A stretch of 64,000 bases of DNA. Source: Dethiobacteria bacterium. GTDB taxonomy: Bacteria > Bacillota > Dethiobacteria > DTU022 > UBA8154. Numbering within the stretch: position 1 is the first letter of the stretch; each line of letters opens with the position of its first letter. The translations under genes and the position numbers were made by a program. Of the stretch, positions 57,012-64,000 are shown piece by piece. The notes beneath the pieces are model-generated. The model saw only the letters and a list, made by a program, of their open reading frames with translations. It did no database searches and was not told where the DNA came from. Location: assembly GCA_050948785.1 (NCBI GenBank), contig JBMNEM010000006.1, positions 164,722-228,721 on the forward strand, read 5' to 3'.

Positions 57012-58322
57012 CTATCTACCCAACATCATTCTGGGAAGAAAAAGGGCTGTTTCAGGAAATGCCGCTACAATTACAACCACAATCAGTATGGGAATGACAA
57101 AAGGCAAGGCACCCAGGTAAATCTCTTCCATCGAAACATCCTTTGCCGTTCCGGCAATGGTGAACAGATTTAAACCCATCGGTGGTGTAATTAAGCCGGC
57201 ATCCATCATCAGCACGCAGACCACCCCGAAGGCAATGGGATCAAACCCTAATTGCAATATCAGGGGGAAAACCACCGGCAGCGTCAAAACCATCATGGAT
57301 ACCGCATCTATAAAGCAACCTAAAAAGAGATAAACAAGAAGTATGGCAGCCAGGACAAAATACCGGGATATTGCCATCCCGGCAACCCACCCTACCAGTT
57401 GCATCGGTATGGTGGAAAGGCCCAGAAAATAGGTGTAAACTGTAGCCCCGGCAATCAGAAAAAGAACCATCGCCGAAACCCGGACAGCCTCCTGTAAAGC
57501 CGTGAAAAGGTTCCTGAAAGTCAGCTTTTTTTTCAACAAAGCAAAAAAGAAAAGCAGGGCCGCGCCCGCTGCTCCAGCCTCGGAAGGAGTAAACCAGCCT
57601 AAATATATTCCTCCCATGACTACCAGGAAAACCAGGACAATTTCCCACACGTTTTTCAGCACCAGGAATTTCTCTCTCCAGCTAACCGGTTCAGGATTGG
57701 CCGGAGCCAGGCTGGGGTCTCGTTTCACCTGGAGCACTACAAGGGCAATAAAGGTCGCCGCCAGAATAATTCCGGGCAGGATGCCGGCAATCAACAATTT
57801 TCCAACAGATTGCTCCGTAAGCATCCCGAAAACCACAAAACCAATACTCGGCGGGATCAGGAAGCCCAGGGTTCCGCCTCCCGCAATCGTTCCTGTCGCC
57901 AATCTCGGGGAATAATTGTATTTCCTCATTTCCGGGTAGGCAATACCGGACATCGCGGCTGCTGTAGCCACTGAAGATCCGGAAACAGCGGAAAAACCGG
58001 CACAGGCTGCAATGGTTGCTGCCGCCAATCCCCCGGGAAGCCTCCGGAGCCATTTATCAAATACATTGTAAAGATCTTCAATCAAGCCACTTACACTGGC
58101 AAAACTGCCCATGATTAAAAAAAGTGGAATAACTATATACGAATAGGTACTGGAAACCTCATAGACTGTTCTGGCGACTACAGGTAAGGCCGCTTGAAAA
58201 GAAGCTAAATACCAGATCCCCAAGAAACCTATCAGCATTAAAGCCAGGGCTATGGGCATCCCTAAAATTAAAAGAAAAAACACCCCGAGAGTACCAATAA
58301 TTCCTGTAGTAATGGGGTCCAA
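57012..58322 (-). CDS. dctM: TRAP transporter large permease
   Basis: IPLF, SGSS.A, GG.LG.LIPPS, AGI.PG, ITPPMG.NLF. Confidence 0.93.
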   Translation of the reverse strand: MDPITTGIIGTLGVFFLLILGMPIALALMLIGFLGIWYLASFQAALPVVARTVYEVSSTYSYIVIPLFLIMGSFASVSGLIEDLYNVFDKWLRRLPGGLAAATIAACAGFSAVSGSSVATAAAMSGIAYPEMRKYNYSPRLATGTIAGGGTLGFLIPPSIGFVVFGMLTEQSVGKLLIAGILPGIILAATFIALVVLQVKRDPSLAPANPEPVSWREKFLVLKNVWEIVLVFLVVMGGIYLGWFTPSEAGAAGAALLFFFALLKKKLTFRNLFTALQEAVRVSAMVLFLIAGATVYTYFLGLSTIPMQLVGWVAGMAISRYFVLAAILLVYLFLGCFIDAVSMMVLTLPVVFPLILQLGFDPIAFGVVCVLMMDAGLITPPMGLNLFTIAGTAKDVSMEEIYLGALPFVIPILIVVVIVAAFPETALFLPRMMLGR

Positions 58323-58387
58323 GGTTTTCCCCTCCTTACTTTCTTGGAAACCTGAACATATTTTTCTTCATTCCGGGCAAAGAGCAC

Positions 58388-58903
58388 TTACCTTTTTAAC
58401 AGCTTTTCTACAGAAATAAGAAGGTCAAACAGGAATTCCAGAAAAAGAAGCGCCCCTCCTACAGGGACAAGCAGCCTGAATGGAAGCTGGGAAATTCTCA
58501 GCACATCTGAAACAATTCTGCCTATATCCCCCGTTGCCACTACCCAACCCTGCCATACTATGATGCTCACAATATATAAACAAAGTAAATTAACGATAAT
58601 TTCCACAACGAGGGAAACACGAAGGGGGAGCCGGGAAACAAAAATGGTTACCCTTGGGTGTCCCTTTACCTGCTGCGTATAAGCCAGCCCTAAAAGTATT
58701 ACAATGACCAGCATAAAGGAAGATGTTTCCACTACACCAGGAATAGGCTTATTGAAGACCGTCCGGGTAATTACATCGGACGTCGTAAGCAGCATCATAG
58801 GAATGAGTACAAACATGCTCACTGCCGATACACAGTAAGTTAAACGCTGAACCCTCTTTTGAATGTTAGCCAACCACTCCATCTGCTTTTCTCCTTTCAC
58901 CAC
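58388..58903 (-). CDS. dctQ: TRAP transporter small permease
   Basis: 4 TM, DV..R, LAY......H. Confidence 0.88.
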   Translation of the reverse strand: MVKGEKQMEWLANIQKRVQRLTYCVSAVSMFVLIPMMLLTTSDVITRTVFNKPIPGVVETSSFMLVIVILLGLAYTQQVKGHPRVTIFVSRLPLRVSLVVEIIVNLLCLYIVSIIVWQGWVVATGDIGRIVSDVLRISQLPFRLLVPVGGALLFLEFLFDLLISVEKLLKR

Positions 58904-58996
58904 AACCAGCGTAGGGGCAATTCGTCACACAGGCGGTTTATGAATCGCCCCTACGCCCGGGGCCGGGGCATCAATCAGCAGCAGCCTCTACAAATT

Positions 58997-60121
58997 TTAT
59001 CTGTACTGTTCCACTTCCGCTTCCCACTCGGGCGGAAATGACGGAAACTCGACACCATGCTTATCCAGTACCGCCTTGTAGTTTAATAATGCCTCCTTGC
59101 CCGGAAGACCCTTTTTCTCCATATTATTGACCCATTCCTGGACAACCTTTTCACTAAAACGGGCATACCAGCGCTCCGCTTCCTCCGCAGGCAGCTCATA
59201 AAATTCCACTCCATCTGCGCTAAGATCCTCATTGCAGGCCTGGATAACCTCTTCAGTCAACCCGCCGGTAAGCTGGAAGGGGTTACGGGTCACTTCTTCC
59301 ACAACAGCCTGCAGATCGGCAGGCATTTTATTCCAAGTGTTCTTATTGATAATCACGCCTTCAGTAACACAACCAAAAGTGGCCACAACCGCATGCTTAC
59401 CCAGCTCATGAAGTTTGTAGGCCTTGTAAAGCATCGGGCAGGTTACAATTCCATCAATATTACCCGTCTCCATGGATAAATATACATCACCCAGCGGCAT
59501 GAAGGCCGGCTCTGCTCCCAAAGCCTCAATCATGTAAGTTTGCAAGCCGCCCGGGGTTCTGATCCTTAGACCTTTTAAATCCTCCAAAGTGCGTACCGGT
59601 TGCCTGGTCCAGATAAAAGACGATACACAGCCATTTAACGAGAGGACCTTCACATCATCGGAGAATTCCTCGTGCAGCATGCGCTCATACATCTCATTAC
59701 CAATCTCCACAGCAACATCCTTACCTAACACCTGGGCCGGCATGGAAAGCACATCGCTAAGCGGAAAACGGTCGGGTGTCCAGGTGGCGGTAAAATAGCC
59801 CATATCGGAGAGCCCGTCCCGCACTATGTCGTAATGTTCCGCTGCACCGCCCAGGGCCGCACCATAGTAGGGCGTGTATGTTATGCGGCCGTCACTTCTT
59901 TTTTTCAGCTCCTCCAGCATAGGCGTCCAAACATTTTGGCACTCCTGCCCGGCAGGGGGATGCCAGGTGCTAAATTTTAGCATATATGTTTCCTGCCCCG
60001 CGGATGTCTCCCCGGGCTGTGTTTCATTCGATGATGAAGGTGCACAGGCTCCCATTGTCAATACTAACATCAAAATCAAACCACTGCTGACAATTGTTTT
60101 TAGCAATCTTCTATTTTTCAC
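58997..60121 (-). CDS. dctP: TRAP substrate-binding lipoprotein
   Basis: Signal peptide with MGAC lipobox, SDGRI, DLKGLRIR, ALGA.P, DVY. Confidence 0.9.
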   Translation of the reverse strand: MKNRRLLKTIVSSGLILMLVLTMGACAPSSSNETQPGETSAGQETYMLKFSTWHPPAGQECQNVWTPMLEELKKRSDGRITYTPYYGAALGGAAEHYDIVRDGLSDMGYFTATWTPDRFPLSDVLSMPAQVLGKDVAVEIGNEMYERMLHEEFSDDVKVLSLNGCVSSFIWTRQPVRTLEDLKGLRIRTPGGLQTYMIEALGAEPAFMPLGDVYLSMETGNIDGIVTCPMLYKAYKLHELGKHAVVATFGCVTEGVIINKNTWNKMPADLQAVVEEVTRNPFQLTGGLTEEVIQACNEDLSADGVEFYELPAEEAERWYARFSEKVVQEWVNNMEKKGLPGKEALLNYKAVLDKHGVEFPSFPPEWEAEVEQYR

Positions 60122-60401
60122 AAAAACCCTCCTCTTAAAAAATAATTTCTATAATCCTTGGGAATCCTTGGATATTCTTAGGAACCGCCAACAAAATATG
60201 AGCGCTTTATTACCCCCTTCCCCTTACTACTTAATTATTTGTTTTTGATTCCACCGAGAGCTTTGATTTGTTCATCACAAAGTAAAGTGGGGATGAAATT
60301 TTGATTATAATACAAAAACATCGTTCTAATGTCAAGAATAGCTACTTTTCCTACTTTTCCTACTTTTCCTAGGAAATAAAGTTTTTACAGTGGGATCATT
60401 T

Positions 60402-61712
60402 TTAAGCCTGTTTTTTAAATAAAATAATGCGGTTGGTGTTGGTCCCGGAGCTGTTATTGTTAATCCCCCAGATATTGGAGGTCTTTGTAAACTCCTGCTG
60501 GTTGATCAGCACACCTTCGCAAGTAAACCCGGTCCCCAGGCCGAGTGGAACAACATACTCTTCCAGGTTTATCTTACCCCGGCGAATTTCACCGACTTCA
60601 AAGGCAACCCAGCCTTTCTTTTTCGTGATCCGGAATAATTCCCTGAAAACCTTGTCCATGACAGCCGTCCATTCTTCGATCTTACGGGACATCGTTATTT
60701 TTGCTTCGATTTGTTCGAGATCAAGGGCATTAAACCAGCAGCGCAGCCAGTTATCGCGGGAATACTGCACAATATCCAAAAACGGCGGAGAGGTTACCGT
60801 CAATTGCACAGAACCGGGCTGTATCTCCGGTGTAGAGCGCGCCTCTTTCTCTAAAAAGAGAGCCGTGCCTGCCGCTTTTTGCAGGCTTTGCGCCTGTTCA
60901 AAGGTTAAATTGCGCATCAAACTGCGGGATTTCTTTAAGATAATTTGTTTTGTATCACGGTAGGGAGGCTTTTGTTTTCTTTGCCTGTTTATTTTCATCT
61001 GGCGCTCCGGGGTAACCGCCTGATTGGGTGGAAGGGTATAAACGGAAAAAAAACCCGGAGAATGGCCGGTTAATCTGTTGGTCGCCACCATGCGGATCCA
61101 CCGGTCCAAATCATCTTCTTCCCCACTTTTATATCGCTGTTGAAGGTAGCTTTTGAGGGAAACAATCTCAGCTTCAGTCCGCTGATGATAAAACATGGAT
61201 AAGTCCCGTTCAGCACGAAGGCTGTAATCAACGGGAAGTTCTGCCAACCGTTTTTTTAGTGCCAAAAGAGAAGGAACAGAAAAACGCGGCTCGGCCAGAA
61301 TCCTACTCAAGGGATTTATATCATTGGAGATAACCCTCCGCCCCATCATGCCCGCTTCAAGTACCGTGGTCCCCCTGCCGCTAAAGGGATCATAGACAAG
61401 ATCATTTTTTTTGCTCAAAAGATTGATAAAAAAGCGCGGCAGTTGGGGTTTAAAGCAAGCACGGTAAGAAATCTCCTGCAGAGAGGAGGCCTGGCGCTGC
61501 TTTGCAGTCCAAAATTCATTAACGTATTTGGGAATACAATGTCCACCGGCAGTAAAATACTCAATTTGAGTTATTCTGCCCGGCACAAAATCCAGGGTTA
61601 ATTTTTCTTTCTCATTTTCCCGAAAAGAAAACCCTTTTAAATAATTGGCAACATCAAGATCCACACATACTGCCTCCCAAAATGATTTTTGCCAACAAAG
61701 CCTGGTCTCCAT
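60402..61712 (-). CDS. Orphan N4/N6 DNA-methyltransferase-like protein
   Basis: YRACFKPQLP, YDPFSGRGTT (motif I), TSPPF (motif IV). Confidence 0.82.
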   Translation of the reverse strand: METRLCWQKSFWEAVCVDLDVANYLKGFSFRENEKEKLTLDFVPGRITQIEYFTAGGHCIPKYVNEFWTAKQRQASSLQEISYRACFKPQLPRFFINLLSKKNDLVYDPFSGRGTTVLEAGMMGRRVISNDINPLSRILAEPRFSVPSLLALKKRLAELPVDYSLRAERDLSMFYHQRTEAEIVSLKSYLQQRYKSGEEDDLDRWIRMVATNRLTGHSPGFFSVYTLPPNQAVTPERQMKINRQRKQKPPYRDTKQIILKKSRSLMRNLTFEQAQSLQKAAGTALFLEKEARSTPEIQPGSVQLTVTSPPFLDIVQYSRDNWLRCWFNALDLEQIEAKITMSRKIEEWTAVMDKVFRELFRITKKKGWVAFEVGEIRRGKINLEEYVVPLGLGTGFTCEGVLINQQEFTKTSNIWGINNNSSGTNTNRIILFKKQA

Positions 61713-62128
61713 CTCTTGATCCTGTGTAAAATTTCTTGAGACTTATCCTTGGGACTTATCTAACATTATAACAAATAAATATCGATAAGCTGATCATAAT
61801 CATAAATTTACTACCCGAAAAAATATTTAATATTTTCATCTTCTGATGGTGAAGCAAAGCTCCATGGGGCTGATAGGGAATTTATCTGAAAAAACATCAA
61901 AAAAAATCAGGGGATTGTTTTCCCCTGGAAGATATATTTTGTAGGAGGTTAGGTTTTAACTGTGTTACTATTTAAATAATTCGCCATTGTTTAAAAAAGT
62001 CCTGCTAAAATTTTAAATAAAATAAAAATTTCTTCCTTTACAAATATAAAAAACATTCCAGGTATTATTTTAAAAAGTATTTTTTTGGCATAAATAAAAT
62101 TCGCTAAATGGGGTTAAAATAGACTTGT

Positions 62129-62562
62129 AAAAAGGGTCTGCAATGGCCGGGCAAAGATTGCTGTATGGTCTAAAAAAGGCCTTACAGCAGTCGACCAAAG
62201 GTTGGTATCGGGTCAAAACCGGCTCGATACCAGCCGGCGGGAAGATCATGTTATGTTCTGCCCTGGCTCCAGGATGGTCAGGGAAGATCATTCTGGGGTC
62301 AACAAGAATATAACATGGTCGAGCGCAGATCGGTATAAGTTCTCTGCAACTTCAAATTTTTACACCTGTGTTGAATACACAACTTGAGAATATAGAGGTC
62401 GGTAACGGTCGGAAGATCGTTACCGGCTTCCCAGAGGATTTATACCGGTCGAGCCAAGGTTGTGGCAGGTTCCGTAAACGATCTGTTACAGTCAAAGGAC
62501 TGTAACAGGTTGTCCAGGGATCTGCTACAGCCGGAAGCCAAGGTCATTGCAGGCTTTTTTTT
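62129..62562 (+). ncRNA. Candidate large multi-helix structured RNA of unknown class
   Basis: Nine 14-20 bp helices around a six-way junction, 2-4 G.U pairs each, no A.C pairs, ends in T-run. Confidence 0.8.
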
Positions 62563-62639
62563 AACACCGGGATCGAAAAGCTTCAGGCACGAACCGGCCC
62601 ATGAGGTTTGGGGCCTTGCTCCGTTTTCCCGTATTTGCC

Positions 62640-62849
62640 TTAATTATCCGCTTTTTTATTTCTTCTGAGCTTTTTGGCCATATGGCCGCCAATTTTACCC
62701 GTTTCCCGCGAAGTAAGATTGGCCCAGCCGCGGCGCGCGATATCATTTTCCAATCCTAACTCCCGGGCAATTTCCTCTTTTAAACCGTTTAAGCCGTTCA
62801 CTGCCGCCGGCTTCTTCTTTTGCTTCTTTTTCTTAGTCATTTTCTCCAT
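62640..62849 (-). CDS. Small acid-soluble spore protein, alpha/beta type
   Basis: LKEEIARELGL...GWANLTSRETGKIGG.M. Confidence 0.9.
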   Translation of the reverse strand: MEKMTKKKKQKKKPAAVNGLNGLKEEIARELGLENDIARRGWANLTSRETGKIGGHMAKKLRRNKKADN

Positions 62850-62917
62850 CCCTGGTCTAGAATTTATTTCTTCCTTTTTAGCTTGACCATAAACCGGGTT
62901 TGTTATGTAAGCGCCTA

Positions 62918-63964
62918 CTACCGGAGAACAATACGCCCTTTCCCGGGAATGATTTCACCGATTATGCTGGCATGGATAAGTTCTTTTTCTTTTAACAACT
63001 GCAGAGCTTCTCCCGCTTTTTCTTTTTTCACCGCCATTAAAAGACCGCCGGAGGTCTGTGGATCACAGAGAATATCCAGCATAATATCCCCCGTTTCCCC
63101 CTCATGAATAATCTTGTCGTGCAAAAAGTCCCTGTTCACTTTGGCTCCTCCGGGCACCAGTCCTTCTGACGCCAGCTCCAGGACCCCTTCAACCTTTGGT
63201 ATTGCCTCCAGGGATATGGCCGCATCAATTTCGCTATTTTCTCCAATCATCTCATAAAGATGACCTAAAAGCCCAAATCCTGTAATATCGGTACAGGTTT
63301 TCACTCCGACCTGACGGGCCACTTCCGCCGCACCGCTGTTCAGGGTTGTCATCCAATGAATTATTTCCTCCAGGGGGCGGGAAGGAGCAAGATCTCCCTT
63401 CAGGGCAGTTGTAAGGATCCCGCTGCCCAGGGGCTTGGTTAAGATAAGCAGCTCTCCCGGCTCAGCACCTCTATTGGTCCAAATCTCCTGCGGTGCAGCC
63501 ACGCCGGTAACGGCAAGGCCGTATTTGGGCTCATCATCATTTATAGTATGCCCTCCTACAAGGAAAGCGCCTGCTTCAGAAACCTTGGCCGCCCCTCCTT
63601 GCAAAATCTCCACCAGGATCTCCGTCCCCAGCTTATGGCAGGGGAAACAAACAATATTCATCGCGGTCAGCGGTTTCCCCCCCATAGCATAAACATCGCT
63701 TAAGGCATTAACCGCGGCGATCTGCCCATAAAGAAAAGGATCGTCCACTACCGGCGGGAAAAAATCCACCGTCTGGATCAGCACCAGATCTTTGTTCAAA
63801 CGGTAAACTGCCGCATCATCCGGAAATTCGGTGCCCACAAGTAAATTATCATCTTTTTGTACAGGTAAGTACGGCACAATTTTGGCCAGTTCCTCTGGCC
63901 CAATTTTTGCTGCTCACCCCGCCGAAGCAGAAAAGCTGGTCAGTTTAATTTTTTTGGCAGTCAT
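62918..63964 (-). CDS. selD: Selenide, water dikinase (selenoprotein, Sec17)
   Basis: MTAKKIKLTSFSASAG-U-AAKIG with in-frame TGA at 63914-63916; DDAAVY, QTVDFF, NALSDVYAMGG, TDITGFGL.GH, DPQTSGGLL. Confidence 0.96.
63884..63900 (-). promoter_or_regulatory. Candidate bacterial SECIS hairpin
   Basis: GGCCAG-AGGAA-CTGGCC starting 13 nt after the UGA. Confidence 0.65.
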
Positions 63965-64000
63965 AAAATCACTCCTCCAGCAGGATAGTTTCGCAATTCC

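Follow-up and report, generated by a model that had tools for sequence, protein, structure and literature searches.

A large six-armed RNA without an Rfam match is widespread among endospore-forming Firmicutes

Introduction

Bacteria encode several large structured non-coding RNAs (ncRNAs), including OLE, ROOL, GOLLD and raiA, of which OLE is typical of anaerobic Firmicutes. Large structured bacterial RNAs whose function is unexplained are uncommon, and new biochemistry has come from every one discovered to date. Here we report on an RNA gene in a 64,000 nt stretch of DNA (the window) from a Dethiobacteria bacterium (GenBank assembly GCA_050948785.1, contig JBMNEM010000006.1, positions 164,722 to 228,721 of the forward strand). 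The gene lies at window positions 62129-62562 on the + strand and specifies an RNA of ~434 nt, here called the star RNA, in which nine helices are arranged around a six-way junction. We show that it encodes a trans-acting and highly structured ncRNA of ~430 nt, transcribed independently and found widely among endospore-forming Firmicutes. As far as the tools and libraries used here show, this RNA belongs to a class of large structured RNAs that is linked to endospore formation and has not been described before.

Sporulation is among the developmental programmes of bacteria that have been studied most, and still hardly any forespore RNA is understood. The closest biological parallel to the star RNA is CsfG, which the accessible parts of the papers citing it describe as a non-coding RNA conserved among endospore formers and as a forespore small RNA (sRNA) (PMC9147052, PMC8216469, PMC3871023). 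According to the same parts of these papers, CsfG is annotated with a length of 107 nt in B. licheniformis, has C-rich regions like those of RoxS and FsrA, lies between ylbG and ylbH in Bacilli, and has no assigned function. The accessible part of one of them also ties 6S RNA to stationary phase and to the timing of sporulation in Bacillus (PMC9147052).

Results

A six-armed fold on the + strand

The first-pass annotation of the window, made by eye from the sequence, had paired nine helices on the + strand, each with two to four G.U pairs, and had counted no A.C pair and a single mismatch. A base-by-base check reproduced all of this. The fold comprises 146 pairs (118 Watson-Crick, 27 G.U and one U.U) and no A.C pair; each helix holds 2-4 G.U pairs and the sole mismatch is the U.U at 62166/62182. 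Helix lengths are 20 bp (P1), 15 bp (P2, P3 and P4b), 16 bp (P4a, P5b and P6a), 19 bp (P5a) and 14 bp (P6b). Six arms leave one junction, which P1 closes. P2 and P3 are plain 15-bp hairpins, and P4, P5 and P6 each have a base helix of 16-19 bp topped by a second hairpin (P4b, P5b and P6b), with a variable insert added in P5. The hairpin helices are of near-equal length (14-16 bp). In the window the linkers read, 5' to 3', GGGCAAA, GACCAAA, GGCGGGAA, GAGCGCA, GAGCCAA and GGAAGCCAA, and these, the TAAAAT upstream and the T-run that ends the element are as first described. The parts of the locus are the following, with compensatory pairs counted among 20 sequences and linker conservation among 118.

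62088..62092, +: upstream promoter box GCATA (-35-like); the two-box motif occurs in 113/124 distinct upstream sequences
62112..62121, +: downstream promoter box GGTTAAAATA (-10-like, GGnnAnAMTA), ending 7 nt before P1
62115-62120, +: TAAAAT, read in the sequence
62129..62562, +: whole RNA gene, ~434 nt, supported by fold z-score, covariation, homologs and metatranscriptome contigs
62129..62148, +: P1 5' strand of the closing helix, pairing with 62542-62561; 13/18 pairs changed on both sides
62149..62155, +: linker J1/2, family consensus GaGCcaA, conservation 70-90% or more
62156..62192, +: P2 hairpin, 15 bp (62156-62170/62178-62192), variable A-rich loop; 9/15 pairs compensatory
62193..62199, +: linker J2/3, consensus CGGCCAAAG including helix ends, at least 90% conserved
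62200..62235, +: P3 hairpin, 15 bp (62200-62214/62221-62235); 9/15 pairs compensatory
62236..62243, +: linker J3/4, consensus CGG.GGG.AGA(u), at least 90% conserved
62244..62320, +: P4 arm, P4a (62244-62259/62305-62320) and P4b (62265-62279/62286-62300); 12/16 and 11/15 pairs compensatory
62321..62327, +: linker J4/5, consensus GGUCGAGCuAAGAu including helix ends, at least 90% conserved
62328..62450, +: P5 arm, P5a (62328-62346/62432-62450), insert (62347-62394) and P5b (62395-62410/62415-62430) with a GNRA loop
62451..62457, +: linker J5/6, consensus GUCGAgC.Aag in the 118-sequence alignment
62458..62532, +: P6 arm, P6a (62458-62473/62517-62532) and P6b (62480-62493/62498-62511), aligning to the P4 arm under the 5'-half model R1 (see below)
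62533..62541, +: linker J6/1, from the pairing check and the 118-sequence alignment
62542..62562, +: P1 3' strand and terminal run of eight T (62555-62562), from the sequence and the pairing check

RNAfold recovered the six-armed architecture without guidance. The minimum free energy (MFE) of the + strand is -249.4 kcal/mol (z = -23.1 against 100 dinucleotide shuffles), compared with -151.7 kcal/mol (z = -6.6) for the - strand. Because of this difference in z, the fold is a property of the + strand as RNA, and such strand specificity is expected from the G.U pairs.

Two of the original structural statements needed adjustment. The 48-nt insert in P5 (A+T 71%) had been taken as mostly unpaired; RNAfold pairs part of it as a small hairpin, one that is kept only among close relatives. 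All six junction-proximal helix ends had been assigned the motif G-C, R-Y, U.G. It is present in P2, P3, P4a, P5a and P6a, and P1 departs from it, since its outer end consists of A-U pairs. The recurring helix-end element is better stated as GGUC/GGCU (G.U, G-C, U.G, C-G) or its relatives GAUC/GGUC and GUUC/GGAU, and it stands at both ends of most helices.

The RNA is also internally repetitive. Direct repeats of 11-28 nt with 61-100% identity lie within it, and a covariance model of its 5' half (R1, 183 nt) aligns onto the 3' half at 67.9 bits, placing P2 on P5b and P4a/b on P6a/b. This self-alignment indicates that the modules are homologous to each other.

Covariation and conserved wobble pairs

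Copies of the star RNA were found by BLAST in 26 of 40 relatives. In an alignment of 20 relatives that are 68-84% identical, for which RNAalifold gave a structure of 152 pairs, every helix is kept. Pairing is retained in 96.8% of cells, against 86.4% in shuffles, and 97 of the 152 pairs changed on both sides, against 46.2 in shuffles; none of 500 shuffles reached either value. When the 3' partners were moved by 1-3 columns as a control, 25-35 pairs were changed on both sides. The early proposal that selection acts on a single-stranded + strand fold is borne out by these compensatory changes and by the z-scores.

A MAFFT alignment of 118 distinct full-length copies extends this result. The whole architecture is kept, the helix pairs are standard in ~93-100% of sequences, and at least three standard pair types occur at 127 of the 181 MFE pairs. 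By mutual information, 97 of the top 170 column pairs are helix pairs. The position of the window's U.U mismatch, 62166/62182, covaries in the family (GC 55, AU 33, UG 12, GU 7, UA 7 and UU 2 of 118). Helix interiors diverge in sequence and keep pairing alone. The junction linkers are the most conserved sequence, and the closing helix P1 is likewise among the best-conserved parts.

Nineteen pairs, which fall into the four-pair helix-end motif given above, are wobbles (G.U or U.G) in 80% or more of the 118 sequences; therefore, selection acts on wobble geometry and not on pairing alone. In P1, the G.U at 62135/62555 is kept in 105 sequences and the U.G at 62137/62553 in 104. The distal G.U/N-N/U.G/C-G motif of P2 is kept in 107, 109 and 97 sequences, and the P3 wobbles at 62202/62233, 62211/62224 and 62213/62222 in 112, 106 and 107. 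The terminal loops are of two kinds. The P5b loop is GNRA (GGAA in the window, GAGA in most distant relatives) and the P6b loop, AAAG in the window, is GAAA in most relatives; the loops of P2, P3 and P4b vary among lineages. The P5 insert is gapped and variable.

Tertiary contacts were also sought by mutual information. Beyond two weak signals inside the junction, at 62453 (J5/6)/62538 (J6/1) (GC 76, GU 8, UA 3 and AG 24 of 118) and at 62457/62533, the remainder looked like lineage effects. We conclude that the element is under strong purifying and compensatory selection as a stable RNA fold that is branched and strand-specific. A protein-coding gene was rejected as an explanation, as the only open frames are overlapping ones of 35-73 aa on both strands and the changes are compensatory pairs.

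Comparison with RNA families

The first-pass annotation had suggested that the RNA is new, and cmscan against Rfam agreed. None of the 4227 models of Rfam 15 matched the element at E <= 1 in a search of 58000-64000. At E <= 10 on 62080-62600 (521 nt), only five sub-threshold matches appeared: RsmW, three microRNA hairpin models and one small nucleolar RNA. The best, RsmW, scored 29.1 bits against a gathering score of 52 and spans P3 to P4b, including a CAGGGA loop. The loop GGA is not conserved among the 20 relatives, and the P4b loop is without GGA in five related loci (L009, L012, L013, L019 and L021). A sponge of the Csr/Rsm type was rejected on both grounds, the low RsmW score and the poorly conserved loop GGA. 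The models of OLE, ROOL, GOLLD and raiA do not score on the 521-nt stretch even at E <= 10.

A lack of resemblance to RNase P, transfer-messenger RNA (tmRNA), signal recognition particle (SRP) RNA and 6S RNA had also been noted. Divergent versions of these RNAs are excluded, because each is found elsewhere in the window's genome: RNase P at 311 bits (C6:159131-159498), large SRP RNA at 189 bits, tmRNA at 192.6 bits and 6S RNA at 87.8 bits. The element is not a dispersed repeat, as the genome holds one full copy, its other matches being 17-36 nt at E >= 0.26; miniature inverted-repeat transposable elements (MITEs) and repetitive extragenic palindromes (REPs) were set aside on that count. An array of ToxI-like type III antitoxins was rejected because the helix interiors differ, the repeats are not near-identical and no adjacent protein gene is conserved.

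No published description of this RNA was found in the literature, with subscription journals and supplementary tables outside the reach of the search, and no relevant term matched in the accessible parts of two ncRNA surveys (PMC11109978, PMC8632094). A C. difficile relative could still sit in the ncRNA and sigma-factor tables, outside the reach of the search, of two further papers (PMC7438776, PMC3789822).

Distribution among endospore formers

The model R1 matched 47 of 114 genomes in the window's order, 61 of 148 in its class and 57 of 151 in a sample of the phylum. With a broader model (R2), 66 of the 151 phylum-sample genomes matched, so the star RNA is widespread. An exact-pattern scan of named species genomes gave at least 120 stretches, of which 80 loci were analysed; R1 confirmed each of these loci, which hold 82 copies, at E <= 2e-21. 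The carriers listed include Sporomusa acidovorans, S. malonica, Propionispora, Lucifera butyrica, several Desulfosporosinus, Pelotomaculum propionicicum, Desulfofundulus thermosubterraneus, Desulfocucumis palustris, Thermoanaerobacterium saccharolyticum, Fervidicola ferrireducens and Thermohalobacter berrensis, and metagenome-assembled genomes (MAGs) labelled Dethiobacter, Clostridium, Tepidibacillus, Tepidanaerobacteraceae and Limnochordales. Among the matches listed, those closest to the window's copy are MAGs labelled Dethiobacter or Bacillota. The RNA was absent from 50,697 phage and 72,556 plasmid records.

Relatives mostly have one locus per genome, and a few have two. One contig (G106:C26:123739-124686) carries two complete tandem copies with starts 567 nt apart, and several phylum-sample genomes have two copies at separate loci (e.g., G179, G224, G162, G264, G151, G156 and G251). 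Strong copies also occur in MAGs labelled "Betaproteobacteria bacterium" (L126, 140 bits) and "Desulfovibrio sp." (L142, 157 bits); these contigs are probably mislabelled or misbinned.

We compared this distribution with that of the germination protease PF03418, which among 14 control genomes matches only B. subtilis. The protease is encoded in 128 of the 151 phylum-sample genomes. All genomes with the RNA have it (66/66 by R2, 57/57 by R1), and the RNA occurs in none of the 23 genomes without it; relatedness inflates any statistic on this overlap, and the inclusion itself is complete.

Promoter and transcripts

We compared the 90 nt upstream of P1 in 124 distinct copies, re-anchored on the -10 box. 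The two-box motif found in 113 of them has the form G[ACT]ATA, ~14-15 nt, GGnnAnA[A/C]TA and ends ~7 nt before P1. The upstream box profile is approximately G/T/A-A-A/T-T-A-A, with core columns of T 76% and A 72-73%; in the downstream box, G reaches 68% and 58% at two upstream columns and is followed by A-n-A-[A/C]-T-A. No sigma-70-type promoter was predicted on the + strand. The motif resembles the consensus sequences of the forespore sigma factors, GCATR-15-GGHRARHTX for sigma-F and GHATR-18-CATXHTA for sigma-G.

The same two-box shape precedes genes for small acid-soluble spore proteins (SASPs) at related loci (L012, L013, L015, L038 and L039), for example GAATA-N15-GGTAACAATA in L013 and GCATA-N15-GGTAAAAATA in L015. 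When scored with the matrix of the RNA promoter, upstream regions of SASP genes had a median of 4.7, compared with 2.3 for 390 control genes (Mann-Whitney p = 1.3e-4; 26 SASP windows, some overlapping), and 6 of the 26 exceeded the control 95th percentile. From the promoter shape and the distribution, we infer that the RNA is likely made in the forespore by RNA polymerase with sigma-F or sigma-G, like SASP genes.

The sequence is present in metatranscriptomes. In six RNA-library runs, taken from five digester and bioreactor studies, 30-74% of the sampled words occur. Run X16 has contigs over 62134-62306 and 62303-62550, run X17 over 62240-62390 and 62446-62596, and run X19 over 62220-62401; such contigs testify to presence only, not to strand, ends or level, and window parts left uncovered do not imply silence. 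In three of the four runs mapped, contigs lie within or just over the element, and contigs of 173, 249 and 182 nt cross several arms. The contigs of these three runs end near the predicted ends, which hints weakly at a discrete transcript. In many distant homologs P1 is followed by a separate hairpin with a T-run.

The only terminator-like site in 61700-62950 is at 61908-61927 (-), beyond the RNA gene, and there is none between the SASP stop (62640) and the RNA. SASP and selD transcripts could therefore run antisense across the RNA gene.

Genomic neighbourhood

The first-pass annotation had placed the element between an orphan methyltransferase gene and a convergent SASP gene. Both are present in the window, with a methyltransferase (PF01555, -) on one side, an alpha/beta-type SASP (PF00269) on the other and a selD-like gene next, and neither proved to be a general partner. 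The methyltransferase is not kept beside the RNA in relatives. A SASP gene is adjacent in 11 of 19 loci of the window's order, in 0 of 28 phylum loci and in 3 of 80 named loci, counts that rest on a hidden Markov model built from one lineage that may miss distant SASPs. When all frames in the 80 named loci were clustered, the top clusters were false frames inside the RNA, which cluster because the RNA sequence is conserved. As neighbours vary across the 80 loci, the RNA is a free-standing gene and its neighbours reflect local synteny. Its single copy, varying neighbours, convergent downstream gene and T-run end together identify it as a trans-acting unit of its own.

In many loci of the window's order the RNA is followed directly, on the same strand, by a HutP-family gene (PF09021, E 6e-47); a DUF2148 gene sometimes stands between the two. 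HutP is a hexameric RNA-binding protein, and we examined the link for this reason. The window's genome has no HutP match. Among the 148 genomes of the class, 43 have both RNA and HutP, 18 have the RNA without HutP, 56 have HutP without the RNA, and 31 lack the two. The RNA and the HutP gene sit on separate contigs in the class's second order, the RNA was not found in any of 10 hutP upstream regions of RNA-negative genomes (full model, no filters), and HutP does not figure as a recurrent neighbour in the 80 named loci. We rejected HutP as a general partner or the RNA as a general hutP leader, given the window genome without HutP, the lack of association in the class and the 0/10 upstream regions. 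The class holds two HutP subtypes (~160 and ~100 bits), and the examples L010:975-1391 (-) and L019:1946-2413 (+) (E ~1e-46) are far from any hut operon seen.

Other neighbours are local. In four or five loci labelled Negativicutes, the RNA is followed by a small protein that may, at a guess, be of DUF1858 type. Two relatives encode a 170-aa protein that has a prokaryotic RING-finger domain (PF14446), at L023:822-1346 (+) and in a matching frame of L027; its gene lies closely downstream of the RNA and on the strand opposite to it.

In the window, the methyltransferase (60402-61712, -) has 436 aa, of which only residues 63-134 match PF01555 (N6_N4_Mtase), and the open reading frame list of 59000-64000 contains no restriction partner for it. 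The selD-like gene (62918-63970, -; AIRS domains) has an apparent GTG start, upstream of which its frame runs on across an in-frame TGA at 63914-63916. Read with TGA as selenocysteine, its N-terminus is ...SASAGUAAKIGPEE, and the gene probably encodes the selenoprotein form of selenophosphate synthetase.

Discussion

The range of the star RNA and the SASP-like shape of its promoter, neither of which the first-pass annotation had picked up, suggest that it belongs to the sporulation or spore programme. About half of the genomes with the germination protease are without a detectable copy, and we regard the RNA as accessory, not universal or essential, in sporulation.

For the molecule itself, the reading we prefer is that the intact star acts as a multivalent platform, and we give this slightly less than an even chance. 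The first-pass annotation had proposed an RNA that presents many copies of one protein-binding helix; the repeated helix-end motif and its kept wobbles are real, and protein binding by them is putative. The helix-end motif (GGUC/GGCU or GAUC/GGUC, with its wobbles kept) would present equivalent sites at ~17 helix ends to a helix-binding partner, and the six near-invariant, purine-rich linkers (GRGCNAAG type) would build a specific junction core. The RNA could then sequester or organise its partner in the developing or dormant spore. Helices of less than two turns that are rich in G.U pairs may resist double-strand-specific nucleases and make the RNA long-lived. As speculation, alpha/beta-type SASPs or ribosomal protein S15 might be such partners. 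A fuller proposal would have a new class of endospore-former RNA, a six-armed star made in the forespore, serve either as a platform for a protein that reads A-form helices or G.U/G-C pairs, or as a stable RNA-only assembly that lasts through dormancy. Taken whole, this combination is tentative and we think it somewhat unlikely.

Several observations weigh against these proposals. No partner protein was identified, and the clustering of frames in the 80 named loci yielded no real recurrent neighbour. The strings for sigma-F and for sigma-G to which we compared the promoter were not found in the literature searched; the accessible part of one paper states that the two consensus sequences are alike, the difference being a G located upstream of the -10 box, and says no more (PMC3789822). 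The SASP promoter comparison has 26 windows, some of which overlap. A matrix scan of the window's genome gave 916 sites above 11 bits, with no clear set of forespore genes in the top 45. DNA may contaminate the RNA libraries, and in run X15 a single contig extends from 62172 through the SASP and selD genes to beyond 63400; either carried-over DNA or antisense read-through transcription may account for it. Of the 128 genomes with PF03418, 62 have no detectable copy of the RNA. Finally, GNRA loops and rigid helices of equal length would suit an RNA-only architecture equally well.

In that RNA-only architecture, the star would fold and perhaps self-associate into a nanostructure, with the GNRA loops of P5b and P6b docking into wobble helix ends, and this structure would be what functions. 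Nanostructures of this kind have been reported for ROOL, GOLLD and OLE, which are also large bacterial ncRNAs. The near-equal hairpin helices of 14-16 bp fit this idea, as do the P5b (GAGA/GGAA) and P6b (GAAA) loops, which are kept as GNRA when those of P2, P3 and P4b vary, the 19 kept wobbles with near-invariant linkers, and the pseudo-symmetry seen when the 5'-half model aligns onto the 3' half. However, no covariation of a tertiary or intermolecular kind was found, the only non-helix signals being the two inside the junction, and the window's own P6b loop is AAAG, not GNRA. We consider this explanation unlikely, though it is the main rival.

The first-pass annotation had also offered a processed precursor. 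On this reading the transcript, like a polycistronic sRNA precursor or an array of type III antitoxins, would be cut into several small hairpin RNAs, and the arms would act apart. Repeated modules that share a short boundary motif and are homologous to one another are what such a precursor would have. Yet the helix interiors vary and keep pairing alone, when sequence would be retained in a processed guide or antitoxin; P1 and the linkers show the strongest conservation; nuclease or toxin genes are not consistent neighbours; and the contigs of 173, 249 and 182 nt cover several arms. These findings make a precursor improbable.

It is more improbable still that the six linkers wrap a ring protein, whether a HutP-like hexamer or a TRAP-like ring, or that the RNA is a hutP leader. 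The six-fold modular RNA has purine triplets in each linker (two NAG-type triplets, GAG-CN-AAG), and the HutP-family gene follows it on the same strand at many loci of the window's order. Against this stand the window genome without HutP, the class tally of 43/18/56/31 with no association, the separate contigs in the second order, the 0/10 hutP regions of RNA-negative genomes and the absence of HutP among recurrent neighbours. The triplet spacing also mismatches HutP and TRAP site rules. In a HutP site, NAG triplets stand in two clusters of three and are spaced by 4 nt, whereas the star linkers have a 2-nt spacer and whole hairpins stand between successive linkers.

That the element is not an RNA gene at all, being instead a cluster of DNA palindromes, a MITE/REP-type mobile repeat or a group of terminators, has a negligible probability: many inverted repeats do lie in a short intergenic stretch, but z is -23 against -6.6 on the other strand, the 27 G.U pairs with no A.C are strand-specific wobbles that already refute it, the genome has a single copy and the phage and plasmid records none, and covariation keeps the pairing across divergent lineages.

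If the platform or the RNA-only reading is true, the core programme of sporulation in anaerobic spore formers would gain an RNA component. The sharp architecture and the many cultivable carriers make the question directly testable, and the rigid, equal-length, wobble-marked helices may be of interest for RNA structural biology and RNA nanotechnology.

Relation to described bacterial RNAs

The star RNA shares with CsrB, RsmZ and RsmW the design of a multi-hairpin RNA in which a short motif is repeated many times. It differs from these sponges in that the repeated motif is a paired wobble element at helix ends, not a triplet in loops. The likeness to 6S RNA is that of an abundant, stable and largely double-stranded regulatory RNA acting by mimicry, which are traits of 6S RNA; the star RNA is without the central bubble and is a branched star, not a rod.

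CsfG, the one conserved forespore sRNA known, is similar as an ncRNA of endospore formers. As regards a forespore promoter and a restriction to endospore formers, the observations on the star RNA are a promoter shaped like those of SASP genes and the germination protease in all genomes that carry the RNA. Judged from the accessible parts of the papers citing CsfG, the two have no relation in sequence or structure: the star RNA has 434 nt, nine long helices and purine-rich linkers, and no C-rich loops.

In general character, the star RNA is most like OLE, ROOL, GOLLD and raiA. It is large, supported by covariation, transcribed as its own unit, restricted in lineage and without an obvious mechanism. 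In contrast to these RNAs, it is built of near-perfect helices of equal length that carry a repeated wobble motif and meet in a single six-way junction, and its occurrence only in spore formers and its SASP-like promoter are features of the star RNA and not of OLE, ROOL, GOLLD or raiA.

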